The notes under the pieces: model-generated
Databases searched by the model: none
What the model was told of the DNA's origin: nothing
The model's input: the letters and a program-made list of their open reading frames with translations, nothing else
Shown: positions 36,833 through 56,145 of the stretch, one piece after another
Layout of the letters: each line of letters opens with the position of its first letter
Numbering within the stretch: position 1 is the first letter of the stretch
Made by a program: the position numbers and the translations under genes
Source of the DNA: Lobosporangium transversale
Lineage: Eukaryota
Reading direction: 5' to 3'
Assembly: GCF_002105155.1 (NCBI RefSeq)
Contig: NW_019029009.1
Location: forward strand, 434,001 to 490,145
DNA length: 56,145 bases

Positions 36833-36866
36833 CTCGTCACCAGTCTGAGGACGAAGTTCATGTGCA
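36833..36866 (+). repeat. 34-bp CRN-unit terminal motif, copy 1 (CTCGTCACCAGTCTGAGGACGAAGTTCATGTGCA)
   Basis: 32/34 identical to 40710-40743; an expanded variant at 52570-52655. Confidence 0.85.
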
Positions 36867-37422
36867 CATGCACGTACTGAAAGGCAAATCTGGCTTGCTC
36901 TTGCAGACACTTCTCTCTCAGGCTGGGACCAAACTTGACATTTTGGCTGGAGGTCTCTTTTTTAAATTTGAAAAAATTCCCGAGTCGAAAGCATCTCCTG
37001 AAGCAACACCAGAGGTTAATAAGCCAAAAAAAGGTACAGCCATCTGATAAAGCCAACTCAAAAAATAGACGAATAACACGATCCAAGAGAATGGCATCAT
37101 AACGCTCATAGAGAGTATCGCAGAGGTTTTTTACTGGCAAAAAATAATAATCTGCACGTTGAGGTTTATTTTTTCCTCACAGGTTTTGTTTTTAATTTCC
37201 TGAGTGACAGAGATCATGTATAAGCAATATCAATTAGGTTAAAACATTGCACGCAGCACCACATTATCCGAGCATTTATTCATTTGTTTTCTATATATAA
37301 AGGTCCTATTTATGTGGGCTGGAGGGCTGCAATTAAACGAAATATGCAACAGCGGTTATGACGGGCCCTCAATAAGTATGTGTGTAGGACCGATTTAAAA
37401 GCGCTACCGCCTTTGTCTAAAG

Positions 37423-37617
37423 TGCAAGCGAAATCACTATAATAATTTTGTGCAACATAGTATTTCGCCCATATTTCTAGAGCATTCCTTGCAACAGGAC
37501 ATTAACTAGTATAAATAGGTCTACTTTTCTATCTAGTTCTGTAGCATAGTTCCCCCTGAATAAAGATACCTTTATTGCACCCTTAGATCCCCCTAGAACA
37601 CTACCTTGACTTTTGCA
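37423..37617. mobile_element. 195-bp solo LTR
   Basis: TGCAA...TTGCA ends and a 5-bp TSD TAAAG (37418-37422 / 37618-37622). Internal TATAAAT and AATAAA. The empty site GTCTAAAGGGTAAG is visible in the paralog at ~53192-53205. Confidence 0.85.
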
Positions 37618-37744
37618 TAAAGGGTAAGTGGATAATGATGGCTTCATTCATAAAGAATGAACCATTGTAAAAAATCCTCAAGGAACGGGTATAATGCTTT
37701 TTTTAAAAAAAGATAATTTTCCATCCACTTGATTGCTATTCGAT

Positions 37745-40191
37745 TTAATTCTCCAGATTCGTACCGGCTGATCCTCCTGAATATGCAGCTTCGATGTCGA
37801 TTTTTATGACACGCTGACTTACATGTTTTAAGCATTTATATGGATTCTTGACGACCGTATTTCTGGCGGTAAGAAAGTTCTGAACTTTAAAATCGCCATA
37901 TACGTCTCCTGGCACCACAAAATAGAGGAAAATATCATCACTTCCCTTCGACTTTGATCGGTCTGCAGTAATATAATCAATTATCTTCCTGAAGGGTGCT
38001 TGCTTGATCGGATGCTTCTCTGATACTGTGACCTGAAATAGCTCGTTGGGTCCCAATGCAAAATCAATGCACGGAAATTTAGAATGTTCTGGTACAAACA
38101 ACTTGCCAGCTGATTGAGTGAGCCCTGATAATTCCTCTGAAGTCCGGATAAACACCTCTTCTGGATTTGCTGGAAAATCAAGAAATCCTGTTTCGCCTGA
38201 CTGGAGATCCCTAAAGGGAAATCTAATATCACCACGTCGAAATAAGTGATGAGCATAGATTTCAAACAGTGGGCCTTTATCTATATCCTCTCCGCCTGTG
38301 ACAAGTTTCGCCAACACATCGACCCAAGTGTTATCTTTTATTTTGTCCATAATCTGTGATTCGACCCAACGAGATGCCCACACCAGGTAGAAGTCGAGAT
38401 GGTCAGAAGTGGGGACTCTATGGAGTAAACGACCACTAAATACACTCGCATCTTTTCCTCGTGCAAAGAGGCTTAGAAGATCTGCTGGTTTCTCGAGTGT
38501 ACTAATGGCATCGTTGACGCGGAGAAACGCAGCTTTTTTAGCACGCTCAGTATATTTTTGATTATCGGATAGTACGTCGGCTGGAGCCTGTAGAACCTGT
38601 CTTGGCACGCCCCCCAAGTCGTAAAAAAGCTCCTCCAAAAATGCTTCACTCACTACATGAAAAAACTTTACATTGGCTCTACATTCCTTAAGCTCATCCA
38701 GACTCCAGAGTGACATGTGATAGTAGCTATTTGGTGTATTTTCCTTGGTGAGTTCATCGTATTGCCCATAGAGAGTTCTTGGCGATGCTGAAAATATCGT
38801 CCTGGCTTCACCTGGTTGAGGATTTTTACCACTATCAACTAAATACCACGTTTCACGTTGGTCAAGGAAATTTTTGAAATCTACTCTCTCCCCATAACGT
38901 CGGCAAGTTGTTCCTCCGTAGGCATAACATTCGGTACTCTGCTTCTCATGGAAAATAATAATCGGTGGATTTTCCTCATCGTGTTCGGCAAGGAGGCGGA
39001 TGGCAAAATAGACCAAAAAGGCTGACTTCCCAATTCCAGGCGTTCCAGTGATAAAGAGTCGGTTCAAACGAGATACTTCATGAGGGGTACTTAATTTGGA
39101 TGTAATATGGTCATAAAGCTCTTTATATTCATCTCTGATATAAAGATGCCTTGTTTTAGCAATAGGGAAGATACGACCCTCAGGGGCAGTCAATATTTTG
39201 GAATCCTTGATACCACCAGAATTTCGGAGCTCGCAAGCCACGCTAATAATGCTGCAGTAAATACTATCTCCTGATAACTCCTTCCCCATGTACGAAAGCA
39301 GCTTGACCCTCTCTTTCGAGTTTAGAGGCGAGATTACAGGGCTACCATTCACTATCCCTTTCGTTACAAGCCCTGCTTCTGTAATCGCATCCCTAAGAGC
39401 ACTTCTGCTACTTATACTTGGATGAGCTTTTTTAGAGGGTGACTCTGCTAAAGGAGATAGAGTGATCAAAGTTAATATTTTTGATTTATTGCACTGCACA
39501 TCACTCTGAATTGATCAATAACCAGATTCTCGGCCAAAAGCACTCACCAGAATCTCCATCTTGTTTTCTTTTCTGACCTAAGTATCAAAAGCGAATAATG
39601 AGAAAGAACGTTGAGTTATCAAGACACAAACCAAATGGTGATATTATGCACATGGCCGTTTAAGATACAAACCAAGCTTCATCAGCTGAAAATATCAACA
39701 ATCAGTCCATCAAGAGCCAAGGATATACCTCGCTGTGGTGGCTTGACAAAAACATGGATAGTTTTCCTTGGAAGTTCAGAATTAAATATCTCCCAAAGCT
39801 CCATTGACGCGATTGTGAGAGCCTCTTTTGACTCGATTTCTGACTCAAAGATGGCCTCGCCTTTGTCAGGGATGGAGACCTTGTAGAGGGTGAGATCTTT
39901 GGGCTTAATGCTTGGATCCACAGTAATATTGGGGTAGATTGCTTGCTTGAGCATCCCGACCGATTTATCGCAGAAAATCTCTACTGGGAACGACGTTGCT
40001 TCTCCCTCGACAACGCAGTTCAGCAGTAGCAGTGCGCGCTTTTTTCGTTGTGGGCGCTGGTTTACTCTTTTTCGTTTATTGAGTGTGGAGGCATCCTCAG
40101 GCTTATTTGCAGTCATTTTTTTTTGTGCTTGGCTCTCTGTGGAATCATTTGCAGCCATGTTTTTTTGTGTTGAGCTCCTTGTGGTGGCCAT
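37745..40191 (-). CDS. CRN: Crinkler (CRN) effector copy A: ubiquitin-like header + P-loop NTPase + PD-(D/E)xK REase; exons 40191-39729, 39577-39548, 39447-37745; ~731 aa
   Basis: Header LNCVVEGEATSFPVEI...LTLYKVSIP...IHVFVKPP (LxLFLAK and HVLV equivalents). Walker A GTPGIGKS, Walker B WYLVD, LGGVPR. REase GPLFE...FPCIDF...LFQVTVSEKH. Confidence 0.9.
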
Positions 40192-40567
40192 TGAAAATTA
40201 AGATGAGTGGGACTGAGTGTGGTTGAAATGCAGGGAGAATGATGGTTAAATAGGCAAAGGTATATTCTTACTCTTTCACCCGTGGTCACGGTATGGAAAC
40301 AATAATGAAAAATGTGTAAGGCAAAAAAAAAAAGAAGGAAAGGAAAAGAAAGGCAATAAATGAAGGCTTGGAATGAATAAAAGAGGTAAGTGGTGAAATA
40401 TGAAAAAGGTGGCGAAAATGAAGTGGAGCAAAGGAAAGAAAGGAGCGACAACTGATAAATTTGTTCCTTTATTTCAAGGTTAGGCTTTTGCGTGAGAAAA
40501 TATTTTTTTCAAATCAGCCACGTGCCATTTTCTTGGTCATTGTGACGTGACAATCTTTAGTGCGCAG

Positions 40568-40743: not shown

Positions 40744-41194
40744 GTTCTTTGCGCAATAAAGATTGTCACGTCACAATGACCCAGAAAATGGCACGTGGCT
40801 GATTTGAAAAAAATATTTTCTCACACATCGCCTAACCTTGAAATAAAGGAACAAATTTATCAGTTGTCGCTCCTTCTTTCCTTTGCTTCACTTCATTTTT
40901 TCACTCTCTCCCTCTTCCTTTACCCTTTTTTTTTTCACTTTTTTCATATTTCACCCCAGTTTTGCTCCCATCAATTTTGCTCTTTTATTTATTCCAAGCC
41001 TTCATCTATTGCCTTTCCTTTCCTTTCCTTTCCTTTCCTTTCCTTTCCTTTCCTTTTTTTTGCCTTACACATTTTTCATTTTTGTTTTCATACAGCGACC
41101 ACGAGTGTGAAAGAGTAAGAATATACCTTTGCCTATTTAACCATCATTCTCCCTGCATTTCAACCACACTCAGTCCCACTCATCTTAATTTTCA

Positions 41195-43656
41195 ATGGCC
41201 ACCACAAGGAGCTCAACACAAAAAACCATGGCTGCAAATGATTCCACAGAGAGCCAAGCACAAAAAAAAATGACTGCAAATAAGCCTGAGGATGCCTCCA
41301 CACTCAATAAACGAAAAAGAGTAAACCAGCACCCACAACGAAAAAAGCGCGCCATCCCACTGCTACTGCTGAACTGCGTTGTCGAGGGAGAAGCAACGTC
41401 GTTCCCAGTAGAGATTTTCTGCGATAAATCGGTCGGGATGCTCAAGCAAGCAATCTACCCCAATATTACTGTGGATCCAAGCATTAAGCCCAAAGATCTC
41501 ACCCTCTACAAGGTCTCCATCCCTGACAAAGGCGAGGCCATCTTTGAGTCAGAAATCGAGTCAAAAGAGGCTCTCACAATCGCGTCAATGGAGCTTTGGG
41601 AGATATTTAATTCTGAACTTCCAAGGAAAACTATCCATGTTTTTGTCAAGCCACCACAGCGAGGTATATCCTTGGCTCTTGATGGACTGATTGTTGATAT
41701 TTTCAGCTGATGAAGCTTGGTTTGTATCTTAAACGGCCATGTGCATAATATCACCATTTGGTTTGTGTCTTGATAACTCAACGTTCTTTCTCATTATTCG
41801 CTTTTGATACTTAGGTCAGAAAAGAAAACAAGATGGAGATTCTGGTGAGTGCTTTTGGCCGAGAATCTGGTTATTGATCAATTCAGAGTGATGTGCAGTG
41901 CAATAAATCAAAAATATTAACTTTGATCACTCTATCTCCTTTAGCAGAGTCACCCTCTAAAAAAGCTCATCCAAGTATAAGTAGCAGAAGTGCTCTTAGG
42001 GATGCGATTACAGAAGCAGGGCTTGTAACGAAAGGGATAGTGAATGGTAGCCCTGTAATCTCGCCTCTAAACTCGAAAGAGAGGGTCAAGCTGCTTTCGT
42101 ACATGGGGAAGGAGTTATCAGGAGATAGTATTTACTGCAGCATTATTAGCGTGGCTTGCGAGCTCCGAAATTCTGGTGGTATCAAGGATTCCAAAATATT
42201 GACTGCCCCTGAGGGTCGTATCTTCCCTATTGCTAAAACAAGGCATCTTTATATCAGAGATGAATATAAAGAGCTTTATGACCATATTACATCCAAATTA
42301 AGTACCCCTCATGAAGTATCTCGTTTGAACCGACTCTTTATCACTGGAACGCCTGGAATTGGGAAGTCAGCCTTTTTGGTCTATTTTGCCATCCGCCTCC
42401 TTGCCGAACACGATGAGGAAAATCCACCGATTATTATTTTCCATGAGAAGCAGAGTACCGAATGTTATGCCTACGGAGGAACAACTTGCCGACGTTATGG
42501 GGAGAGAGTAGATTTCAAAAATTTCCTTGACCAACGTGAAACGTGGTATTTAGTTGATAGTGGTAAAAATCCTCAACCAGGTGAAGCCAGGACGATATTT
42601 TCAGCATCGCCAAGAACTCTCTATGGGCAATACGATGAACTCACCAAGGAAAATACACCAAATAGCTACTATCACATGTCACTCTGGAGTCTGGATGAGC
42701 TTAAGGAATGTAGAGCCAATGTAAAGTTTTTTCATGTAGTGAGTGAAGCATTTTTGGAGGAGCTTTTTTACGACTTGGGGGGCGTGCCAAGACAGGTTCT
42801 ACAGGCTCCAGCCGACGTACTATCCGATAATCAAAAATATACTGAGCGTGCTAAAAAAGCTGCGTTTCTCCGCGTCAACGATGCCATTAGTACACTCGAG
42901 AAACCAGCAGATCTTCTAAGCCTCTTTGCACGAGGAAAAGATGCGAGTGGATTTAGTTGTTTACTCCATAGAGTCCCCACTTCTGACCATCTCGACTTCT
43001 ACCTGGTGTGGGCATCTCGTTGGGTCGAATCACAGATTATGGACAAAATAAAGGATGACACGTGGGTCGATGTGTTGGCGAGACTTGTCACAGGCGGAGA
43101 GGATATAGATAAAGGCCCACTGTTTGAAATCTATGCTCATCACTTATTTCGACGTGGTGATATTAGATTTCCCTTTAGGGATCTCCAGTCAGGCGAAACA
43201 GGATTTCTTGATTTTCCAGCAAATCCAGAAGAGGTGTTTATCCGGACTTCAAAGGAATTATCAGGGCTTACTCAAGCAGCTGGCAAGTTGTTTGTACCAG
43301 AACATTCTAAATTTCCGTGCATTGATTTTGCATTGGGACCCAACAAGCTATTTCAGGTCACAGTATCAGAGGAGCATCCGATCAAGCAAGCACCATTCAA
43401 GGAGATAATTGATTGTATTACTGGACCCTTGAAGGGAGACCAATCAAAGTCGAAGGGAAGTGATGATATTTTCCTCTATTTTGTGGTGCCAGGAGACGTA
43501 TATGGCGATTTTAAAGTTCAGAACTTTCTTACCGCCAGAAATACGGTCGTCAAGAATCCATATAAATGCTTAAAACATGTAAGACAGCGTGTCATAAAAA
43601 TCGACATCGAAGCTGCATATTCAGGAGGATCAGCCGGTACGAATCTGAAGAATTAA
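41195..43656 (+). CDS. CRN: Crinkler (CRN) effector copy B; exons 41195-41663, 41815-41844, 41945-43656; ~736 aa
   Basis: Same architecture and motifs as copy A. 30-nt micro-exon (GQKRKQDGDS); TAG-CAG tandem acceptor at intron 2. Basic NLS-like NKRKR and RKKR. Confidence 0.9.
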
Positions 43657-45165
43657 ATCGAATAGCAATCAAGTGGATGAAACTTTGTCTTTAAAAAAAA
43701 GCATTATACCCGTTCCTTGAGGATTTTTTACAATGGTTCATTCTTTATGAATGAAGCCATCATTATCCACTTACCTTCTAGACGAATAAATAGAGCGGTT
43801 TAATCCGTCCTCCCTTCTACTGGGGCATTTAGAACTTTATAAAGCTGTGATCATTGTGCGATCTTGTGTGCAAGAAAAGGCAGGATTTTGTGATACTATT
43901 ATCAAAGAGTTTTGTAAAAACGGATAGAGATGAAGAATCCTGTGGAGAACCCAGTGAGAGTCTGATGATGAGACCCAAAATCATATTATTATCACCAGGA
44001 CAGCTGGCATAGGAAATTATTCTTTCTCGTATGCTTTGTTATCTGGATGCTTGCCACTTGCGGAAGACCTATCAATTATCATCATCCAGGGCGCCAAAAC
44101 GTTTACCGGGAGCTAGGATGACAGCTCCACTCTAAAGACATAAATGTCCCATGGTGCGCGTGCACGGGATGGCAACCTGTGGCCAATGAGATCATATTAG
44201 TTGTATGTTCGGCCAATTCAATGTCAGTATGTGAAGGCGGCGCGTCTTGAATCTCTAGGCGTCCAGGGACATGGAATAAAAAAACATCAAGAATTTGGCC
44301 AAGGCTGCCACGCGCTTGACCGGTAAAATGTGATACGATATTGGATTGTGTCGTCAGTATATTAATAGTTCTCGGTATATTAATGCTACATGCTGCTGCT
44401 GAGGGCATCAATCTCGCCAGAATCATCCCCTCTCACATCAATTCATGCTAGACGGATGAAAGATTAGGAGGAAAAGGTCCTTGATGTCTGGGATATCCAC
44501 GCTTGTTTATAATCTCACCAAAAGTTCTGTGTCTTGCGTTCATAGGCGGTTAATCGCAGTTTGGTTTTCGTATACCCCTTGAAGAACGTAAGCAAAAATG
44601 CCTTTATGTTTTATATTTGATACTCATCAATTTACTTGTCCGAAGGTAGAATGACGCCTAGCCAATGGATGCTATATGCTTGGTCCTGTGGTCGTCTCCG
44701 TCCAATGATCACTATAATAGAGAACGTCATTGGACGTGCCGATGCAGGCCTTTGGAAGCAAGAAATCAAGGGCCTGGTGTGGTCGCTCACTGATCCGGGA
44801 TATAAAGAATCTGGTAACCTATGCCATGAGTAATCTAGAATTCTGAAGCGTATTAACAAAGGGGATGCAGGAATTAAAACCAGTGTCGACATCAGGGAAA
44901 CCTTCGGTCGAGCCGTAAAGAATGAATAGATTACTATATAGTAAAGACTTGATATTGGAGTACAATGAGCCTGTTCCGTCGAGGTTTCGTTTGCTTGAAT
45001 TGTCGTTAATCAAAGGAAGAAGGAGTTTACAATTATCGTTGAGCCAATATCATTTATAGCAGCAATTAACTTGTTTGAAGTGGATGACCCTTGATTGGCT
45101 AAATTGGTTAATAGTGTGTTGCTAGACGCCCCTACGTCTGGCACAAAGGGCACACATTATGAGTA

Positions 45166-47507
45166 GAGTCCTCGCCAAAAAGTCATAAACTGGATATATT
45201 TTTCAGGCTTTTAAATTGAATAGAATACTTCCACTTTTAGACGCAGGAAAAATACGTACAAACTCAAAATTTTAATTTTTACGAGAGCGTTTTCGATTGA
45301 TAAGAGGCTCGTCCTCAGACTCGCTATCCTCTATCACATTAAACATGCTTCCAGCATCTAGCGTAAGATCCACTATCTCAGGGCCTAGGGTAACAGCTTC
45401 AGCTCGCTCTTGATTTAGTACTCTAATGAGTTCTGCATCCCACTCACTATTGTCGACTTTGAAAGTGTCACTAAGGTCCACAATAGGCTCGTTTTCATCA
45501 AAAACCTCTTGATAAACCTCTTCGACTATTTCTTCCTGTGCATGACTCCTCTCGTTATAGTATCTCATGCCAATTTTCACAGACTTCTTCCATACAGAGT
45601 AAAAGACTTTACACGGAATCTGGGAAAACAAGCTTAGTAGCCTTTTTTTCAGCAAGATGGATGTCATTGTCACCATTGCTCTCGAGGCAATTATGTTTTT
45701 CACAACTGCCCAGATCTTCTCAATAGGTTGTAGCTCGCAATGGTAGGGTGGAGTCTTGAGGATTTCATGTCCACCATTCTCCTGGGCTATTTTACTGATA
45801 GAGAAATACGACTCATCAGGAAGAGCGTTAACCAATTCCATAAGCTCGTTTTTGTTCAGTGCTTTTCCATTTTCCCTTGTTGGAATAACAATCTCCTTGC
45901 CCGTGAGCCACTCTTTGATAGTTTTCACAGTGTCGCTCTTGGTTGGTTTCCTGTTTTTCTTGTGAAAGTGATATGAAGCGCCATCAAGATGGATTTTACA
46001 AGGGCCAAGTCCCATCTTATTGAGATTCTCACAAAGTCGCTTAAAGATACTATCGAACAAACTAGCGTTGAAGTTTCCATGATAATCGTGATCTGTTGCC
46101 ACGACCCCTGCATTCCTGATCTCCTCAGGTACGTCATCCCACAGTTCAGCCTCCTGCTCTTGGCCTTTTTTTGATTGAGGCATTGGTCCCTTTGATGGCC
46201 AAACATACACGCTATCATTAACGAATTTGCCTTCAACCTTTTTAGCAGCTTCATCATAATATACAATGAAGGCTGCAAATATAACCATGATTGGTTTCCT
46301 TCCTGCATCGTTAATGACACCACCGCCACTTTGCACCCAACGTCTTGCTGCAGCATGGTCAATGTGGCAGTAAGACTCGTCCAAGAAGACCTCTGGAGTC
46401 CTAGGCACCCAACTGCCGTCTACTAGTTTTAAATTCTTAAGACGGCGCTTCAGGTAAGTAGCTCGGAAGGCAATATTCTCCTTGGAGTCGTGCAAAAAGT
46501 TCTGTCGGATCCCTTTGCCCCAATACAGTCCCATTTTACGGAGGTCGCGAGTGATTGATCTTGCTGATCTGTCGATTTCAAAGTCTTCTTTCAGTTGGTT
46601 TGCAATTAAACCCGCAGAATTAGGAGTCCCGCTCTTGTTTGATTCAACTATGATATTCAGCACCTTCGAGTTTAAATCCTTGTCCGCTTCTTTTTTAGGG
46701 CGTCCAGTTCTTCCTCGCCCTGTCATTTCGACGATGCCTGTTTGTGCATATTTAATTGCTGCCACACAAGTGTTTCTCCCTACACCCATCAGAATCGAAA
46801 GGTCCATTGCTCTGTTGTCTGTCTTCTTAAACCAGTCTTGGACTGCTGGTGGCGCATTCATTATAGCATTATATGTATGAGCTATTATCGCGTATTCGTC
46901 TTTAGTAACGGACGCTTTACTGCGTGTAAATGCCTTTTTTCTCTCTCCAGTTTGTTTGTCTGACAAGAATGGATTTAAATCGAGGGTATTGGGACGCTCA
47001 CCGAATTGCTCTAATGAGGTAGAACTCCTTGGCTCGTTTCTGGGAGGAGTAATCCATTGATATTCGGTAGGAGACCTAATAGGGGAGAGATCGGCTTCAG
47101 TGGGCAGTTGTGGCGATCTTCGAGGCGAAGTGAAGGGTGTGCCTGAAATCATTTGGTCGATATTTCCTTCGCTATACCAACCACCAAGATCGTTGTATGA
47201 GAGTAGGTTATTGATATCAAAAGGGAAAGACATTTTACTATCTGAAGATTGCGAATAAAGTAGGTTGACAATGAGGATGAGATCGAGAATGAGATTGAGA
47301 ATGATGTTGCCCATTTCTCGCAAATTCTAATATTTCTAATTAAAAACGAAGATTGAATTGGTTTGGTGGCCATGCATCTAATTCATTCCTTCTATTCAAA
47401 AAATATATGCATTTTTGTCTTCGTACGTAAATTTTTATTTTTCAAATTTTTAATTCAAATTGAGTATTGTAAAATATATCCAGTTTATGACTTTTTGGCG
47501 AGGACTC
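45166..47507 (-). mobile_element. Intact IS630-Tc1-mariner DNA transposon, Sailor-like (DD87E), 2342 bp
   Basis: Perfect 37-bp TIRs GAGTCCTCGCCAAAAAGTCATAAACTGGATATATTTT (45166-45202 / 47471-47507). TA TSD at 45164-45165 and 47508-47509. One uninterrupted transposase ORF. Confidence 0.92.
45272..47314 (-). CDS. DDE transposase (ATG at 47314 or 47233)
   Basis: VFLDESY, IHLDGASYH and TPPYHCELQPIEKIW. 87 residues between the second D and E (hand count). GRPKK AT-hook-like linker; C-terminal RKRSRK. Confidence 0.92.
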   Translation of the reverse strand: MGNIILNLILDLILIVNLLYSQSSDSKMSFPFDINNLLSYNDLGGWYSEGNIDQMISGTPFTSPRRSPQLPTEADLSPIRSPTEYQWITPPRNEPRSSTSLEQFGERPNTLDLNPFLSDKQTGERKKAFTRSKASVTKDEYAIIAHTYNAIMNAPPAVQDWFKKTDNRAMDLSILMGVGRNTCVAAIKYAQTGIVEMTGRGRTGRPKKEADKDLNSKVLNIIVESNKSGTPNSAGLIANQLKEDFEIDRSARSITRDLRKMGLYWGKGIRQNFLHDSKENIAFRATYLKRRLKNLKLVDGSWVPRTPEVFLDESYCHIDHAAARRWVQSGGGVINDAGRKPIMVIFAAFIVYYDEAAKKVEGKFVNDSVYVWPSKGPMPQSKKGQEQEAELWDDVPEEIRNAGVVATDHDYHGNFNASLFDSIFKRLCENLNKMGLGPCKIHLDGASYHFHKKNRKPTKSDTVKTIKEWLTGKEIVIPTRENGKALNKNELMELVNALPDESYFSISKIAQENGGHEILKTPPYHCELQPIEKIWAVVKNIIASRAMVTMTSILLKKRLLSLFSQIPCKVFYSVWKKSVKIGMRYYNERSHAQEEIVEEVYQEVFDENEPIVDLSDTFKVDNSEWDAELIRVLNQERAEAVTLGPEIVDLTLDAGSMFNVIEDSESEDEPLINRKRSRKN

Positions 47508-48049
47508 TACTCACTGTAACAAAGACTCCATACATGAATCCAAGTTAATCTCGCTTTTTTTTGTTTTGTTTCCAAAAGAGAACCCATCTGGACCAGATAT
47601 CATTTTTGTATTAGAATCGGAGGGTAAATATTATCCTGGTTCCGTACAGTCAAAAATCGGCGAGAAGGTCAAGAATTAAGGATGCCCACAATACAACTTG
47701 CCATAATTGCATCAAAGAACACCTCTCATCACCGTCTTCTCTCGGCTTTTGCTCGAATGGCATATCCTTGTTGCTGTTGTTTAGGCCTTACTTATCACGT
47801 TGCCTTATCATGTTGCCTTATCACGAACAGGGTGATTATTCGCTAGCTAAAGTCAAAGAAGTTCCTACCATCAAAGACAAACGAATAGAAACGACGTACT
47901 CAATATTAGCTTGTTGAACTTCCTTGAAAGTGCAAGGGAGTCCCTCAAGAAGTCAGAATTGACTCGAGCTGTGGAGGATGAGGGAGAAGGAAGCAAGCCC
48001 AAAGAACCACAGGCAAGGAGGACATCAAAGAGAATTGCCGATAAAGCTC

Positions 48050-48535
48050 AAGCTATGGAGCATCGCCCTAGCTCATGGAATATGAGTCCAACGTTTTCAA
48101 GAAGTTTGGGGCTCCTCTTCCAGTTTATGTTTGCGTAGTCTTCATCAGTCAGGTCTTCACCGGCTGCCTTTAAAACACGCCGTGTTAAAGAACCCTTGTG
48201 AAAGTTTCAATCCCTGGCTGAGATCTTCTTCATCTACGTCAGACTGCTGCTATCTCTTCGTCTGGATTGTGCCATAGGCAAGTGGATTCAGAACAAGGCC
48301 ATTGGTAGAATCGTCCCTTTGAGTTTGAACCGAGTTATACCTTTGTCTTGTGCCTGTAGGGGTACCTTGTCTCGATAGCCATGAAACATGCGATCTCCTT
48401 CAATGTCACAAAGAGAGCCTGTATCTAGACCTCTTTTGTTCCCTGTACACATTCAAACACTGCAGCCTTGGGAGGATTGTCGAGAGGATGTCAGTTAGAA
48501 CGTGTTCAGACAGATACACATACCGAGGGGGGACG
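48050..48535 (-). pseudogene. Fanzor remnant 2 (pre-RuvC segment)
   Basis: Across frameshifts: RYVYLSEHVLTDIL...RFKLKGTI/TNGLVLNPLAYGT...NINWKRSPKLLENVGLIF. Matches RKLRTSFFTNGLTLTLLAYDT...GINWKQRSRLLENVEVKY of the + strand copy. Confidence 0.7.
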
Positions 48536-48546
48536 TAAGGAAGTCT

Positions 48547-48577
<31 letters not shown>

Positions 48578-49399
48578 CATTCCATTGTTCTCTGGCAAGA
48601 AAAGCTCATCGAACAATAAAAAAATAGAGAGCTTTAATAGAGAGCAATCGACTGCAGAATATGCATGAGGATTCTCTACACAAAGTTATATCTTTGTGCT
48701 CCTGTGGTGAATACATGGGTAGATTTGACTCGGTCTGTAGGAACTGATTTGAAACAGGTGGCTACATCCTTGTCAAAGGTAACAACAAAAGAAAAAAAGT
48801 CTTCTTTCTTCTTTTTATCAGAGAATGGCTTCATATGATGCTCTTTGCTCCAACAGCTCCACCAATGGAAAGGCTTGTGTTTTAGCAAAATGTGTTTGTG
48901 CATGTACAGAAACAAAAGAGATGCTTCAGCTGCTTATTCGTGCACACAGTGATTGACGAACAAAAAAGGAAAAAGCCCGCGATAAAAGAAGGCATATGCA
49001 GACAACAAATAAACAAACTGTTTGCTCACATACATTTTTTTCACCGTTGTGTCTGTAACTCTTCTAAGCTTTCTGTCTGGCCGTTTAACACAAGGAACCC
49101 TCAGAAAAAGAAATACCTCGCATGATTGGTGCCAGGTCTGAAAACAACAATAATGCAATGCTGTACGTGGAAGATAGGGTCTAGAAACTATACCATTGAT
49201 CACAACTGCTACTCATGCTCTCTTGCCAAGGACTTGAACAGGCATACCAACCCCTTCTTCCTTGCTCTCATAACCGCTCACATCCTTTCGATGCATTCTT
49301 TCGCCGTTTATGTCCACTACATCTGAACCACACACAGTTCACCACTCACTCCAACAGAGATATTTGTATCACCTTGGGTATGATATGTTGCTGTGGTTC

Positions 49400-51021
49400 C
49401 CTCTGGTTTCAACAGGCCCAACAAACTCTATTAGCAGTGTTTATCAACCCAAATACATCAAGGGAACGCAAGAAGACGAGTAGGCAAATGATGCGACAAA
49501 TCAAGTCTCGTCGAGCTGTACAGAAAAAGATCAAGTTAGTCAGGCTGTAGAACGAATCAACTCAGATTGCCTCAATCATACGACGAATATTATCATCACT
49601 ATATCACATCAATCAATCAATAAACGATACAATGAGGCCCCCCAAGCGGACAATGGAGTCATGCGAAAGTCTTCATGAGTATTATGGTCTAACCCAACAG
49701 TTCGAGAGGAAATAGTCCAATTGTTGGAACTAAACATGAGTACCAAGGGGGCTGCAGAGGACAAGATCCTTAACCACAAGGGGATATTGTTGCAGGAGCT
49801 GTTTTCCTTGAAAGGATACAAGGACGTTGGACTGCAACCTGATGATGGCCCTAGAAGGAAACTACGGACATCGTTCTTTACAAACGGCCTTACCCTAACA
49901 CTTCTTGCCTATGACACATCGAAGCAAAAAAGAGGTAGAGGTTCGCAAGCTGCCCAACCTTCGGATACTCAAAGATCTCAAGCAGTCCAGGCTTCTTCAA
50001 GTGCTCAGCAGGGATCCTCGTCTTCAGGCCATGGTGCAGGCGATGGTGGTGATGATGGAGACGACGACGGAAATGAAGATGACGATATCTTGCTGGGTAT
50101 CAGCGATATTGACTTGCTGGAAGTTGATGAACCATTCTTAGATGGCGACGAGGGAGAAGAAGCAGCTGAAGAAGGTACATCGAGCACAAATCCACTGTCC
50201 CCGGTGAGTCCCAGTCCCCGGCGTGGGATCAACTGGAAGCAGAGATCCCGTCTCCTCGAGAATGTAGAAGTTAAATATGACACCCAGGCAGCATGGGACC
50301 AGTGACGACAATAAGGAGACTATATATAGGGCGCTTGTCGATTTCTATAATGACGGGTGGTTTGTTCGGAATAGCTGGGATAATAGAAAAGCACAGAACG
50401 GATGGGTTGATTATGTGATCAAGGCAATTCTGAAGCTTGCGGGCGGAAGCAATGGAAGAAGAAGAGATGCCAATACGAATGCGGTGATCTGTATTGGACT
50501 AGGATCATTCAAGACAAACCGAGGACAAGTATCGAAGCATGGGATATTGATGAAGAAGCTTGTTGAAAAGGTAAAAAAAAAATCCCTTGATCAATGACAT
50601 TTAATTTTTGAGTCTTTTTTTTAACGAGTATTAAATCTGGCTCGAACAGGCAAAATCTCTAGACTACCCCATTGCAGGTTGTCATGAATACTACACATCT
50701 GCCAAGTGTCCACGGCCTCACTGCGACAGTATATTGGAGAATGTTCCTTTTCGATCCAAGTACTGTCGAAATTGTAAAGCATACTTTGATCGAGATGCTG
50801 TTGGTGCTGAGAACATCGCAAGGGTCTGTGAGTCGCAGACAAGAGAGCAAAAACGACCTGCAAAAATATATGCCGCCGGACGAATGTGGGACACACATCC
50901 TTGGGTGTATATCGATCTATATCAATATCTATATGTCAATCAATGTCTACTATGTCTATACATATCACATCGCGTCAATCAAGATGTATTATCTCGATCC
51001 CTCCATCTCAAATGGATATAG
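49400..51021 (+). pseudogene. Fanzor1-like (TnpB/IS605-OrfB family) RNA-guided nuclease remnant 3; intron 50571-50649; RuvC-I region deleted near 50300
   Basis: SFFTNG motif. VICIGLGSFKT...SKHGILMKKLVEK|AKSLDYPIAGCHEYYTSAKCPRPHC...RSKYCRNCKAYFDRDAVGAENIARV, i.e. RuvC-II E (50686), a four-Cys zinc finger and the RuvC-III DRD..GAENI motif. 5' limit approximate. Confidence 0.85.
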
Positions 51022-51130
51022 CCCGTTCCATTTGGTCGCGATCCCTTATATTTTTTGAATACTCTTAAATGTAATGGCAGCCAATTGACTCGCTTGTTAT
51101 TGCAAGTGGTGTGACTGGTCATTAAAATTA
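50960..51130 (+). ncRNA. Candidate Fanzor omegaRNA scaffold / element right end
   Basis: Lies at the 3' end of the Fanzor ORF. Stems ATCGCG(50969)/CGCGAT(51037), CAAATGGA(51009)/TCCATTTG(51027), and an imperfect hairpin 51072-51124. Positional and structural inference only. Confidence 0.35.
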
Positions 51131-52431
51131 TTTTGTATCCACTAATCTGTCGAGCCAGCTAAAGGAATCTTTGCGCAAAGCCTTTGTAGTCATAGGCGGG
51201 TCCGCCTCACCTAGAAACTACCGAGTTATAAAAGCCAAAGAAACTTCCTTCTTAATAAAGTCTTCAGTTTTCCCCATATGTCCTTATTCTTCACCTGCAG
51301 TTCATCTTGCCATTTATCTTTTTCCCCTTTTCACAACAAGCATTTGTCTTCCGGTAACTCAGTTTGTGAGCTCACCTATAAAGCTCCCATCTTTTTGACA
51401 TTCCTATGGTGCTGTTTGTAGTCAAGGTTATTTGACTCTATTTTCTCTTGTCAATCTTGTTGACACTCTTTTGTCCTGCCTTATTCCTGATTGTGTCTAT
51501 CTTTCTGTCCCTTAAGCAAAGATATTTTTTACAACAATGCCACCAAGCAATTTATTTAGGATTAAGATATGTGGGGTCTATATGTTGTCTAAATAGTCCT
51601 CCCCATAAAAAAAACACCATCTAGACCAAGCATAGAAATAAAGAGATTAGTCAAGAAAGCACTGTCAAGCTAATACTTACAACTTTTTCAAGACGAAGGT
51701 CTTTCCCGACCTAGTCATGTTTGTAGTAGCTCATGAAAAATTTTAGACAGACAAATAGTAACCAGGGAGCAGAAGTGAGAATAGGATGTGGGTTCACACA
51801 TCACATCCATGGGGCATTTATCCAAATTTGTATCAAAATAAAACTGTAAGTTTGTATCGGGCACCACACCATGGGGCATAGAGCCGTTAGTATGTCTGTA
51901 TTATAAATCTTCATGTAACACGTGTACTGTGAAATATGCAACTGATCTATCCATTGTTGTTGCCGGCTTGGTGTCTTTCTCCCCATGGATTCAACGAAGG
52001 CTATTTTGATATCTCGAGTTTGGACTCAACCTGTCAGTGAGCATTGGTGCAAGCATATAAGGCACACAGGCTGTTGACGAGCCTACTTCTCACCTTCACC
52101 GTTTGACGCAGGTCAGGGTTGTGACGGTCTAGCGAAGAAAACGTAAGGGCATTAACAATATCAGGATCGCATTAGACGGTAGTTGTGGTATTTGCAGATG
52201 AAAATAGGGAAGAACTGCGCAAACCCAGCGGATCCAAATAAAAGAAAAGGTGAGTCGACTCAAGCGGAGGACAACAAGTCCAATAGGCCAAGCAGGGATA
52301 AGGGACCAAGGAAAAAGTAGCGATCGTTTCTTTTACTTCTTTTTGCTCGCCATTGTTTATGACAATGGCACAGACCACAATTTTGTAATATAGCACTAAT
52401 AGATAAATTAAAATATCGCTATTTCAATAAA

Positions 52432-55400
52432 CCTGAGCAAGGAGAAGTGAGCACACCAAGCGGATTGCCGCAGCTGCATCATCAGAATTTTCTCAAGCAA
52501 GTGGCAAGTTGTTTTTATGAGTGGCGGAATAGGAATCCTCTCTCAAATGAATTGCCATTTGACGATAGGCTCGTCACTAAGAGCGGACAATTTGCCTTGC
52601 AGCACGTTCATTCGCTGCAGGTGGCTTCGACCTCTGGTGACGAAGTTCATGTGCACATGCACGTACTGAAAGGCAAATCTGGCTTGCTCTTGCAGACACT
52701 TCTCTCTCAGGCTGGGACCAAACTTGACATTTTGGCTGGAGGTCTCTTTTTTAAATTTGAAAAAATTCCCGAGTCGAAAGCATCTCCTGAAGCAACACCA
52801 GAGGTTAATAAGCCAAAAAAAGGTACAGCCATCTGATAAACCAACTCAAAAAATAGACGAATAACACGATCCAAGAGAATGGCATCATAACGCTCATAGA
52901 GAGTATCGCAGAGGTTTTTTACTGCAAAAAATAATAATCTGCACGTTGAGGTTTATTTTTTCCTCACAGGTTTTGTTTTTAATTTCCTGAGTGACAGAGA
53001 TCATGTATAAGCAATATCAATTAAGTTAAAACATTGCACGCAGCACCACATTATCCGAGCATTTATTCATGTTTTCTATTATAAAGATCCTATTTATGTG
53101 GGTGGAGGGCTGCAATTAAACGAAATATGCAACAGCGTTATGACGGCCCTCAATAAGTAGGTAGGACCGATTTAAAAGCGCTATCGCCTTTGTCTAAAGG
53201 GTAAGTGGATAATGATGGCTTCATTCATAAAGAATGAACCTTGTAAAAATTTCTCAAGGAACAGGTATATAAAGACAACTTTCCATCCACTTGATTGCTA
53301 TTCGATTTAATTCTTCAGATTCGTACCGGCTGATCCTCCTGAATATGCAGCTTCGATGTCGATTTTTATGACACGCTGTCTTACATGTTTCAAGTATCCA
53401 GGTATTGCCTTGGCATCCTGACTATCGTTAATAACAACTTCTGAACCTTAAAATTATCATATATGTAACCTGGCACCCAAAATAGAGGAAAATAGTATCA
53501 TCGCTTCCCTTCAGCTTTGATTGGCCTTCATTCAAGCAGGGTCCAGTAATACAATCAATTATCTCCTTGAATGGTGCTTGCTTGATCGGATGCTCCTCTG
53601 ATACTGTAACCTGAAATAGCTTGTTGGGTCCCAATGCAAAATCAATGCACGGAAAGTTGGGTATAGATGGTAGAAACAACTTGTCTGTTGTTTTTGGAGA
53701 ATGTTGAAAAAATCTGCTGTAGTCCTGGGTAAATAATACATCCGAGGAGTCCCTCGGAAGATCAAAGAATCCTGTTTCGTCTGATTGAAGATCCTTAAAT
53801 GGAAACCTAAGTCACCACATCGAATTAAATAGTGAACATAGAGTTCAAACGAAGCTCCTTTTTCTATTTCACTGCCAACTTCGACAAGTCGCTTCAACAC
53901 GTCGATCCAAGTCTGATCTTCTAACTTCATGATGATCCGCGATCGAACATAAGGAGATGCCCATACAGGTGGAAGTGGAGGTGGTCAGAAGTGGGACTCT
54001 ATGGAGTAAAACAACTACCCGCTTCATCTCCTTCTCTAAAGAGGTCTGAAAGATTGCTTGGGAGCCAGGTACGCGAATGGCATCATTGACGTGGAATAAC
54101 GCAGCTGCTTTAGCACGCTCAGTATGTCTTGATTTTTGGATAGTACATTGGCTGGACACTTAGAACCTGTCTTGGCACGCCCCCCAAGTAGTAAAAAAGC
54201 TCCTCCAAAAATGCTTCACTCACTACATGAAAAAACTTTACATTGGCTCTACATTCCTTAAGCTCATCCAGACTCCAGAGTGACATGTGATAGTAGCTAT
54301 TTGGTGTATTTTCCTTGGTGAGTTCATCGTATTGCCCATAGAGAGTTCTTGGCGATGCTGAAAATATCGTCCTGGCTTTACCTGGTTGAGGATTTTCACC
54401 ACTATCAACTAAATACCACGTTTCACGTTGGTCAAGGAAATCTTCGAACATCGTTATTTCCCTTTACGTTGCAAGTTGTTCCTCATACTGATACGTCTAA
54501 TTGGTATGCTGCTTCTCTTGGAAAATAATAATCGGTGGATTTTCCTCATCGTGTTCGGCAAGGAGGCGGATGGCAAAATAGACCAAAAAGGCTGACTTCC
54601 CAATTCCAGGCGTTCCAGTGACAAAGAGTCGGTTCAAACAAGGTACTTCATGAGGGGTACTTAATTCGGATGTAATATGGTCATAAAGCTCTTTATATTC
54701 ATCTCTGATATAAAGATGCCTTGTTCCGGCAACAGGGAAGATACAACCCTCAGGGGCAGTCAAATTTTGGAACCTTGATACCACCAGAATTTCGGAGCTC
54801 GCAAGCCACGCTAATAATGCTGCAGTAAATACTATCTCTGATAACTCCTCCCCATGTACGAAAGCAGCTTGACCCTCTCTTTCGAGTTTAGAGGCGAGAT
54901 GCAGGGTCACCATTCACTATCCCTTTCGTTACAAGCCCTGCTTCTGTAATCGCATCCTAAGAGACCTCTGCTACCTATACTTGGACGAGCTTTTTTAGAG
55001 GGTGACTCTGTAAAGGAGATAGAGTGATCAAGTCAATATTTTTGATTTATTGCACATCACTCTAAAATGATCAATAACCAGATTCTCGGCCAAAAGCACT
55101 CACCAGAATCTCCATCTTGTTTTCTTTTCTGACCTAAGTATCAAAAGCGAATAATGAGAAAGAACGTTGAGTTATCAAGACACAAACCAAATGGTGATAT
55201 TATGCACATGGCCGTTTAAGATACAAACCAAGCTTCATCAGCTGAAAATATCAACAATCAGTCCATCAAGAGCCAAGGATATACCTGCTGTGGTGGCTTG
55301 ACAAAAACATGGATAGTTTCCTTGGAAGTTCAGAATTAAATATTCCCAAGCTCCTTGACGCGATTGTGAGGCCTCTTTTGACTCGATTTCTGACTCAAAG

Positions 55401-56145
55401 ATGGCCTCGCCTTTGTCAGGGATGGAGACCTTGTAGAGGGTGAGTGGTCAGCGCAATATCCTTAATGCATGGCTTCTCTGTTTTGAATGGCTTGCTTGAG
55501 CATCCCGACCGATTTATCGCAGAAAATCTCTACTGGGAACGACGTTGCTTCTCCCTCGACAACGCAGTTCAGCAGTAGCAGTGGGATGGGCGCTTTTTTC
55601 GTTGTGGGCTGGTTTACTCTTTTTCGTTTATTGAGTGTGGAGGCATCCTCAGGCTTATTTGCAGTCATTTTTTTTTGTGCTTGGCTCTCTGTGGAATCAT
55701 TTGCAGCCATGTTTTTTTGTGTTGAGCTCCTTGTGGTGGCCATTGAAAATTAAGATGAGTGGGACTGAGTGTGGTTGAAATGCAGGGAGAATGATGGTTA
55801 AATAGGCGAAGGTATATTCTATACTCTTTCACACCGTGGTCGCTGTATGAAACAAAATGAAAAATGTGTAAGGCAAAAAAAAAAAAAAGGAAAGAAAGGA
55901 AGGAATAAGGAAGGCAAATTGATGAGAAAAATGGGGTGCAAATGATGAAAAAGGACTTTATTTCAGTTAGGCGACGTGTGAAAAATAATTTTTTTCAAAT
56001 CAGCCACGTGCCATTTTCTGGTCATTGTGACGTAAATCTTTGCGGCAAGCGAGGTAAGTCTTTTCAATTTTTGTTAAGTAAACCATTTAAATATTTGAAA
56101 GAGTCTAGCCAAAAAGAGCGACAAGCTTGACCCTCTGGCGCAAAG
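52432..56145 (+). repeat. Direct duplicate of the CRN A unit (36822-40694), lacking the solo LTR
   Basis: Shares CCTGAGCAAGG, the terminal motif, the 3' flank (DEVHVHMHVLKG... ORF text identical), the CRN gene, the promoter and the MITE right half. Confidence 0.9.
53307..55743 (-). pseudogene. CRN: Crinkler copy C, frameshifted as assembled
   Basis: Header, GTPGIGKS, LGGVPR and FPCIDFALGPNKLFQVTVS are present but broken by many, mostly 1-bp, deletions. Confidence 0.85.

Follow-up and report, generated by a model that had tools for sequence, protein, structure and literature searches.

A probable dead Fanzor1-family fragment without RuvC-I in Lobosporangium transversale, and a predicted FEN1/EXO1-like head in its full-length relatives

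The stretch of Lobosporangium transversale DNA analyzed here (56,145 nt of contig NW_019029009.1, positions 434,001 to 490,145 of the forward strand, hereafter the window) carries at 49680-50882, on the plus strand, a piece of a multi-copy gene family that is placed by profile and fold searches with the Fanzor1 RNA-guided nucleases. With high confidence, this piece is a fragment that is cut at both ends and has lost about 130 codons of the RuvC-I region; these losses make it a likely dead pseudogene. As a further decayed member of a Fanzor1 family that is already catalogued, the locus is of minor importance; the interest lies more in the FEN1-like head that is predicted at the N-terminus of the family's long members. 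A first-pass annotation, made from the sequence alone, had placed an intron-containing Fanzor gene at 49400-51130. A gene of this type is present, but 49400-49679 lies outside it, and homology to the siblings is limited to 49680-50882. The coordinates of all features are collected in Table 1.

Table 1. Positions in the window of the Fanzor1-family fragment, its breaks and the neighboring elements
Feature	Position	Strand	Content or basis
ORF 1	49679-50305	+	peptide ...RTSFFTNGLTLTLLAYDTSKQKRG, acidic/Gly-rich run, then INWKQRSRLLENVEVKYDTQAAWDQ and stop
ORF 2	50268-50597	+	peptide ...AVICIGLGSFKTNRGQVSKHGILMKKLVEK, then VKKKSLDQ and stop
ORF 3	50635-51021	+	peptide IWLEQ, then AKSLDYPIAGCHEYYTSAKCPRPHC...CRNCKAYFDRDAVGAENI...
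Piece 1	49680-50294	+	frame of ORF 49679-50305; P0011 model residues 299-507
Deletion junction	50294-50295	+	loose contig ends in X1, X3, X5; P0002 residues 187-317 unmatched
Piece 2 (exon)	50295-50570	+	frame of ORF 50268-50597; P0011 model residues 597-674
Intron	50571-50649	+	79 nt, GT..AG
Piece 3 (exon)	50650-50882	+	relocated RuvC-II Glu, TNB zinc ribbon, RuvC-III
Extra A	50862	+	"left out 1" in X7 (1/1 contig), X1 (3/3) and X3 (1/1); X5 without cover
3.3-kb unit, copy 1	36844-40380
3.3-kb unit, copy 2	40980-43786		inverted
3.3-kb unit, copy 3	52633-55917		direct
Tc1-like transposon, apparently complete	45160-47513		ORF 45275-47326, minus strand, 684 aa
Second Fanzor subfamily, piece a	48051-48487	-	P0033/P0045-like residues ~82-210, 51% identity
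Second Fanzor subfamily, piece b	52073-52201	-	residues 209-249, 83% identity

Three open reading frames (ORFs) are read on the plus strand at this locus. Removal of an intron with 28% G+C content (GT at 50571-50572, AG at 50648-50649) fuses the second to the third in frame, joining ...GILMKKLVEK to AKSLDYPIAGCHEYYTS (AKSLDYPIAGCHEYYTSAKCPRPHC...CRNCKAYFDRDAVGAENI). This is exactly the join that the first-pass annotation had drawn, and it is read through without a gap in the gene models and in intron-free relatives, including relatives from other genera (for example, '...KKLVEKAKSLNYPIVGCHEYYTS' in P0006). Public sequencing runs were compared with the window over 49000-51400 as contigs, not reads, which give no expression level, strand or transcript ends. 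In run X7, the RNA status of which is a guess, a 57-nt contig of depth 83 covers 50542-50576 and then continues with 'TCTCTAGACTACCCCATTGTAG', corresponding to a join of 50570 to 50650 that is flanked by just 29 and 28 letters. Further X7 contigs end at 50571 or start at 50648, and the path through the intron has a depth of 47 versus 170-300 in the exons. In runs X1 and X2 (DNA by guess), 305-nt contigs match the window across the whole intron with 0 differences, and the listing for X1, X2 and X3 shows no spliced end. At a position where the window reads GCA (Ala), the spliced X7 contig reads GTA (Val), and it is therefore assigned to a sibling copy. The evidence for splicing applies to the family and does not extend to the window copy.

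The three coding pieces of the fragment differ in content. Piece 1 includes the last part of a helical segment, the WED β-hairpin with its 'SFFTNG' strand, a disordered insert that is acidic and Gly-rich, and, leading into RuvC-I, 'INWKQRSRLLENVEVKYDTQAA'. Piece 2 holds the helices that follow RuvC-I and the strand 'AVICIGLGSF', which occupies the canonical RuvC-II position without an acidic residue. Piece 3 contains HEYYTS (relocated RuvC-II Glu), CPRPHC...CRNC (four-Cys zinc ribbon) and FDRDAVGAENI (RuvC-III). The exon 50650-51021 scores 28.5 bits against Pfam family PF07282 (Cas12f1-like_TNB, cut-off 26.3), and it aligns with the last 47 positions of the NCBIfam TnpB model NF040570 (E 1.7e-4), a match far under that model's whole-protein cut-off of 100. 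Because this exon passes the PF07282 threshold, the reading of an intron and a TNB region is more than chance. Pieces 1 and 2 alone yield no meaningful Pfam or NCBIfam match. The profile search that had been proposed as a check is in agreement with the earlier assignment of E-Y-x-T-S, the four-Cys finger and RuvC-III to TnpB/Fanzor. The acidic/Gly-rich insert after the TNG strand, likewise described before, is a family trait that is also found in P0009, P0015 and P0016. As a side observation on this insert, one contig each in X1 and X3 (both DNA by guess) skips 304 nt at 49936-50241, which is the whole acidic insert. The skipped segment has GT..AG ends and 4 shared nt, and the shorter side of the contigs is just 25 letters; from this weak signal, some genomic copies seem to be without the insert.

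To place the family, a profile of 147 family sequences (A2) was compared with the Protein Data Bank (PDB). The best match is SpuFz1 (8gkh, E 2.5e-10), and it spans the 'TDG/TNG' strand, 'vigiDpGe' and 'nEyyTSkkCprC'. The next matches are, in order, mimivirus Fanzor2 (TNB end only), LaTranC, Guillardia Fanzor1, Cas12f, Parasitella Fanzor1 and TnpB, with E values of 4.2e-9 for Fanzor2 (9b0l), 2.7e-7 for GtFz1 (9cer), 1.3e-4 for PpFz1 (9cf0) and 0.025 for TnpB (8exa). The Fanzor1 chains align from the WED strand through RuvC (A2 profile positions 136-387). Profiles were used because a phmmer search of the sibling P0002 against PDB sequences was swamped by Gly/Ser linker noise, the sole relevant row being LaTranC (E 0.87). 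An AlphaFold2 model of the Mortierella alpina relative P0011, built with the A2 alignment, has a predicted local distance difference test score (pLDDT) of 81.7 and a predicted template modeling score of 0.81. In a Foldseek search of this model against the PDB, ranks 1-7 are all Fanzor1 (E 6.1e-13 to 5.3e-8), followed at lower ranks by Cas-phi (7e-5), Fanzor2 (3e-4) and TnpB (2.5e-3). Alignment with VIA-align gives a Z of 18.9 for PpFz1 (442 residues, 4.1 Å) and of 15.0-15.7 for SpuFz1 (438-441 residues, 3.2-3.4 Å), with 12.9 for GtFz1, 11.1 for TnpB (8h1j) and 10.4 for Fanzor2 (9b0l). These alignments, through which the previously suggested structural comparison with SpuFz1 was made, describe the fold of P0011 and not of the window copy, and those to Fanzor1 cover model residues 72-757.

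The catalytic residues of the family are consistent with this placement. Among the A2 sequences, the RuvC-I Asp is found in 95/104, the relocated Glu in 93/106 and the RuvC-III Asp in 94/107, and the four zinc-ribbon Cys residues are kept in 90-101 of 101-108. These columns indicate that the family is under constraint. Jiang et al. 2023 describe a replacement of the canonical RuvC-II Glu by Gly or Pro, together with an alternative Glu ~45 residues farther downstream. The spliced reading of the window has 'ICIGLGSF' and, 36-38 residues after it, 'HEYYTS', and across the family the canonical RuvC-II column holds L/T/M/N/D and never the usual E. The Glu of E-Y-x-T-S is the relocated RuvC-II glutamate of that study. 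By profile and by model fold, this family of Mortierellaceae proteins is placed with the solved Fanzor1 nucleases, in agreement with the Fanzor1-type gene that had been inferred from the motifs. By analogy with SpuFz1, its intact members are predicted to be ωRNA-guided RuvC endonucleases. A search of 47000-53500 against Rfam returned nothing above threshold, and only a sub-threshold lysM-TM7 match was seen (30.4 bits versus 61.5).

In contrast to such members, the window copy is broken at three points. When seven siblings were searched onto the window with tblastn, the matches were confined to 49679-50865, and sibling contigs diverge from the window at 49680, 50294/50295 and 50882. Residues 1-176 of P0005 and residues 187-317 and 480-551 of P0002 are unmatched. 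Upstream of 49680, the sibling contig sequence is a loose end, '...CTCCTGGATA', and behind 50882 the sibling contigs run on as 'GAGGAACTCAAGG...' or 'GAGGAACTCAAGGCCAAGC...' (DGGTQGQ). Homology reaching farther upstream, to 49583 (P0028, 27% identity), was rejected as BLAST over-extension, as the sibling contigs diverge at 49680. The window copy is without the 5' part, without a start codon in the sibling frame and without the 3' tail; it stops ~70 codons short of the siblings' stop codon, and this truncation would take away a Gly/Ser-rich tail. At the internal break, the loose ends in X1, X3 and X5 read 'CCCTCCCCCCGAAAGTACCATTATCATTGG' (PPPESTIIIG) behind 50295 and '...AGCAGTGGATC' before 50294. 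The absent internal stretch begins CPPSESTIIIRIDPGERYSMT... in the sibling and contains RuvC-I, which is read as 'IIIRIDPGE' or 'IIIGIDPGE' in P0002 and P0003 within a stretch of 131 residues. Judged from P0002, the deletion would measure ~386 nt. A TG at 50294-50295 is common to both flanks, and the deletion may therefore be a 2-nt microhomology join. It shifts the frame, which then reaches a stop at 50303-50305. The failure of the first-pass annotation to see a DPG-like RuvC-I and its report of a frame shift at ~50300 are both accounted for by this break.

The structural consequence of these losses was mapped onto the P0011 model. The window is without residues 1-298 (the REC helices and the first WED strand) and keeps 299-507, which include the WED hairpin (365-388) and the disordered acidic insert (398-482). 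The deletion corresponds to residues 508-596, a segment with two helices and the RuvC strands 515-521 (with D520), 527-532 and 541-545. Together, pieces 2 and 3 correspond to residues 597-753, with the RuvC-II strand, E693, the zinc ribbon and D730. With three core strands and the first catalytic Asp gone, the predicted product cannot be a RuvC nuclease, and because the RuvC-I Asp is absent, the window copy is filed as a relic of the family rather than as a working Fanzor1 member. The suspicion of an internally deleted and probably nuclease-dead copy is borne out in its first part by the unmatched residues 187-317 of P0002, and the dead status is graded likely.

The same deletion is seen at a second locus. 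The gene model P0005 reads '...KYDTQAAWDH/WDNRKAQ', which are the junction codons of the window, and then has a modeled intron that skips the frameshift. Because several residues differ and a 176-residue N-terminus is present, P0005 is taken to be another locus with an identical deletion. It is proposed that the deletion arose once, through the 2-nt microhomology join, in a longer copy; that the deleted copy was then duplicated or moved; and that later trimming reduced the window copy to 1.2 kb within an 8.8-kb island of transposon debris. The window copy would in this way be a worked example of decay, from microhomology deletion of a catalytic strand through spread of the deleted form to truncation.

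Several observations weigh against the reading of the window copy as a decayed pseudogene. The three pieces retain 94-98% identity to sibling proteins and are free of internal stops, so the copy appears young and its decay is shown just by the deletion, the truncations and one frameshift. This frameshift is itself contradicted: the window sequence 'GCAAAAATATATG' is one A longer at 50862 than every contig there, including the one that spans the 3' junction as it stands in the window. The extra A shifts the frame just ahead of the 3' homology limit, and either a strain difference or an assembly error may be behind it. An ATG at ~50277 could in principle give a product of ~220 aa without RuvC-I. 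The one-base discrepancy, together with the multi-copy nature of the family and the collapse of sibling contigs onto the locus, also raises the question of whether the deletion and truncations are assembly artefacts and the true locus holds an intact Fanzor gene. The contigs argue against this at all three breaks. Record 7 of X1 (50852-51020) bridges the 3' junction at 50882 with 31 and 138 letters; 296-nt contigs in X1, X3 and X7 go from the unique flank to 30 letters past 49680; and record 20 of X5 (50266-50382) crosses the deletion junction, with 29 letters on one side. Under a 31-letter rule, the 3' junction alone passes, and the bridging of 49680 and of the deletion falls short. The runs come from 4 studies, though the strain may be one and the same, and P0005 has the junction codons independently. 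An artefact of this kind is considered highly unlikely.

The identical junction at no fewer than two loci (the window and P0005) could alternatively mean that a nuclease-dead form without RuvC-I is maintained, either as a non-autonomous element mobilized in trans or as a TNB/RuvC competitor for guide RNA or target DNA. The high identity of the pieces to intact siblings would fit such a form, as would the apparent transcription and splicing of the family in X7. However, the deletion runs into a stop within a few codons, the window copy has no 5' part, sibling-frame start codon or 3' tail, and the sole spliced contig is the sibling (Val) allele. Plain duplication of a dead copy also yields two copies with one junction, and maintenance is regarded as improbable, if less so than an assembly artefact. 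A further question is whether the gene is a different TnpB relative, such as Fanzor2, an IS607-type TnpB or a recent bacterial transfer, as the TNB region alone also matches Fanzor2 9b0l (E 4.2e-9), LaTranC, Cas12f and TnpB. Those matches extend over just ~60-80 residues at the zinc-ribbon/RuvC-III end, whereas the Fanzor1 matches run from WED through RuvC in the profile and over nearly the whole modeled body, with Z values of 15-19 for Fanzor1 versus 10.4 for Fanzor2 and 11.1 for TnpB. The gene also contains a spliceosomal intron, and the siblings stand under FZ1 in the tree table of Saito et al. 2023. An origin outside Fanzor1 is accordingly given very little weight, and the window copy is read as a dead fragment of a Fanzor1 gene.

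The relatives of the fragment are numerous. A search with 50268-50570 found 7 proteins at E <= 0.001 among 70 candidates, with 76-98% identity: six L. transversale hypothetical proteins and one from Entomortierella. With the sibling P0002 as the HMMER query, 454 proteins were found at E <= 0.001, 199 of them at <= 1e-10, and the relatives looked up belong to Mortierella alpina, M. claussenii, Benniella, Dissophora, Entomortierella and metagenome contigs. The sibling gene models P0001, P0003, P0005 and P0007 disagree with one another, in that introns are drawn across frameshifts and RuvC-I or the zinc ribbon is dropped; in P0007, a FEN-like start is fused to a segment from the middle of the gene. 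Patched pseudogenes probably account for many of the annotated "genes" in this family. Two L. transversale entries, XP_021884711.1 (834 aa) and ORZ22893.1, are classed as 'FZ1' by Saito et al. 2023 (supplementary file 3), and Mortierella occurs 84 times in that file. The sequence printed there for XP_021884711.1 shares the window stretch 'LWSNPTVREE...FFTNGLTLTLLAYDTSKQKRG'. The Fanzor1 family of the fragment was already catalogued for L. transversale in 2023; the window copy is unannotated.

Comparison with known systems shows what the family shares with them and where it differs. Like SpuFz1 of Spizellomyces punctatus (8gkh, 9ceu-9cez) and PpFz1 of Parasitella parasitica (9cf0, 9cf1), the family has a WED-REC-RuvC-TNB order, a 'TDG/TNG' WED strand, a 'DPG/DPN' RuvC-I, a relocated Glu in 'EYxTS', a four-Cys ribbon and an 'RD..N' RuvC-III, at just 12-17% identity. 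In contrast to these two proteins, it has the disordered acidic insert of ~85 residues after the WED hairpin (P0011 398-482), and its long members carry a FEN1/EXO1-like head of ~300 residues. The window copy, unlike SpuFz1, is without REC, RuvC-I and the 3' end, the last being where the SpuFz1 ωRNA is located according to Saito 2023. The two FZ1 entries of Saito et al. 2023 named above are longer gene models, whereas the window copy is a truncated fragment that carries the deletion and has no annotation. XP_021884711.1 belongs to the same L. transversale family, with long shared stretches, and ORZ22893.1, in the sequence given there, matches a second Fanzor subfamily (P0045-like), pieces of which flank the fragment. 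ISDra2 TnpB (8h1j, 8exa) and Cas12f have the RuvC fold and zinc ribbon in common with the family (Z 11.1 for 8h1j, E 0.025 for 8exa), whereas TnpB differs in having the canonical RuvC-II Glu, a length of ~400 aa, a bacterial origin and no introns.

The long relatives start with MG(I/V/L) and have a common N-terminal domain of ~300 residues that resembles the FEN1/EXO1/XPG-Rad2 nucleases (8yjh, 3q8k, 5v09, 6vbh) by profile, fold and acidic positions, and that differs from them in being fused to a Fanzor1 body in one protein. In a profile of 11 long relatives (A1), the N-terminus matches human FEN1 (8yjh, E 3.7e-12) as well as Rad2, XPG and EXO1, and the C-terminus matches Fanzor/TnpB chains. 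A hidden Markov model of nine heads detects the domain in 12/12 collected proteins of >= 1000 aa and in 14 representatives outside the model, including L. transversale P0007 (residues 1-115, E 3e-17). The acidic columns of the head pair with the FEN1 motifs in the HMMER alignment of A1. The metal ligands of human FEN1 (D34, D86, E158, E160, D179, D181 and D233) have seven counterpart columns in the head alignment A3: D 12/13, D 15/17, E 19/21, D 19/21, D 15/16, D 14/16 and D 19/19. An AlphaFold2 model of Dissophora P0122 (1166 aa, pLDDT 74.2) has values mostly > 90 at residues 1-345 and a disordered linker at 351-435, and a fold search with this single model returned EXO1 (E 5.6e-10, template modeling score of 0.61-0.62 on the target), FEN1 (1.5e-9) and SpuFz1 (1.9e-9). 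As a side observation, ESM Atlas places P0122 residues 1-300, by language-model features, nearest to giant-virus (Nucleocytoviricota) XPG_N/XPG_I clusters and poxvirus G5-like proteins (score 0.94-0.95), and this likeness is only a lead on the origin of the head.

Among metagenome gene calls, P0132 (1256 aa) is found on contigs of 4.1-5.5 kb, its cluster of four members drawing on four sources, and a 4.9-kb contig carries P0106 (1302 aa). Because of this metagenome source and these contig sizes, head and body would be encoded in one uninterrupted ORF in both. In a metagenome scan for the DNA of P0132, 0/96 candidate stretches were confirmed. A word-index search with the head of P0010 matched P0010 itself and P0157 only, and tblastn of all 153 collected proteins found no head sequence in the window. 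P0122 and P0153 are listed as FZ1 with full sequences in the table of Saito et al. 2023. By keyword search, the head is undescribed in the main texts of Saito 2023, Jiang 2023, Yoon 2023, Bao & Jurka 2013 and Xu 2024, and unmentioned in the supplements of Saito 2023 and Jiang 2023, one Saito supplement being unreadable. The literature searched contains no co-mention of Fanzor and XPG, and the co-mentions of Fanzor and flap, among those listed, are editing reviews or tools by title. Matelska et al. 2017, who treat PIN-like domains, do not mention TnpB, OrfB or RuvC in their main text. Relative to the Fanzor literature searched, the predicted joining of a FEN1/EXO1-like head to a Fanzor1 body is new.

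In the full-length forms, the predicted FEN1/EXO1-like 5' nuclease would process cut ends. On balance, and with modest confidence, the ancestor of the relic would have been a two-nuclease gene encoding a catalytically intact FEN1/EXO1-like 5' nuclease, a basic disordered linker and a Fanzor1 body, in which the head would trim RuvC-cut 5' ends and steer repair to copy the element back. Genome engineers have built pairings of a flap or 5' exonuclease with an RNA-guided nuclease by hand. If head and body cooperate, the arrangement would bear on the role of Fanzor for elements in eukaryotic nuclei and on the design of compact editors.

The remainder of the window consists mostly of ordinary genes (PH-domain, OPT transporter, catalase, F-box/LRR and PUF). 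It also holds three copies of a 3.3-kb unit that encodes a Crinkler-N-domain ORF (PF20147) and an ORF of ~590 aa with faint P-loop matches. Units 1 and 2 lie head to head as a near-perfect palindrome, in which one pair of 1603-nt arms is 100% identical, and the third unit shows 93-100% identity. The Fanzor fragment sits in the 8.8-kb island between units 2 and 3. This island contains the Tc1-like element, which has 46-nt terminal inverted repeats (98% complementary) and an open transposase frame. Its ORF scores 28.0 bits against DDE_3, weakly and under the cut-off of 28.6, and it has 35 homologues at E <= 1e-5, several of them named Tc1-like transposase, with relatives in Mortierellaceae and Rhizophagus. 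A clean TA duplication was not seen at the element ends read. Its inverted repeats do not enclose the Fanzor pieces, and a repeat search at the locus found no inverted or direct repeats bounding the Fanzor fragment.

The island also holds two pieces of the second Fanzor subfamily. Piece a contains stops and frameshifts and ends '...ELGRCSIA' at a stop. Piece b reads 'SSANTTTTV', an in-frame stop and then 'CDPDIVNALTFSSLD...', so that the stop falls in its RuvC-I motif. Both pieces break at one point of the gene, with ~9 nt shared, and their order is swapped, the later piece being upstream on the minus strand. This order resembles a circle opened at that point; insertion, inversion, tandem duplication and a re-inserted circle were considered as candidate explanations. 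The spacers from pieces a and b to the Fanzor fragment measure 1192 and 1190 bp.

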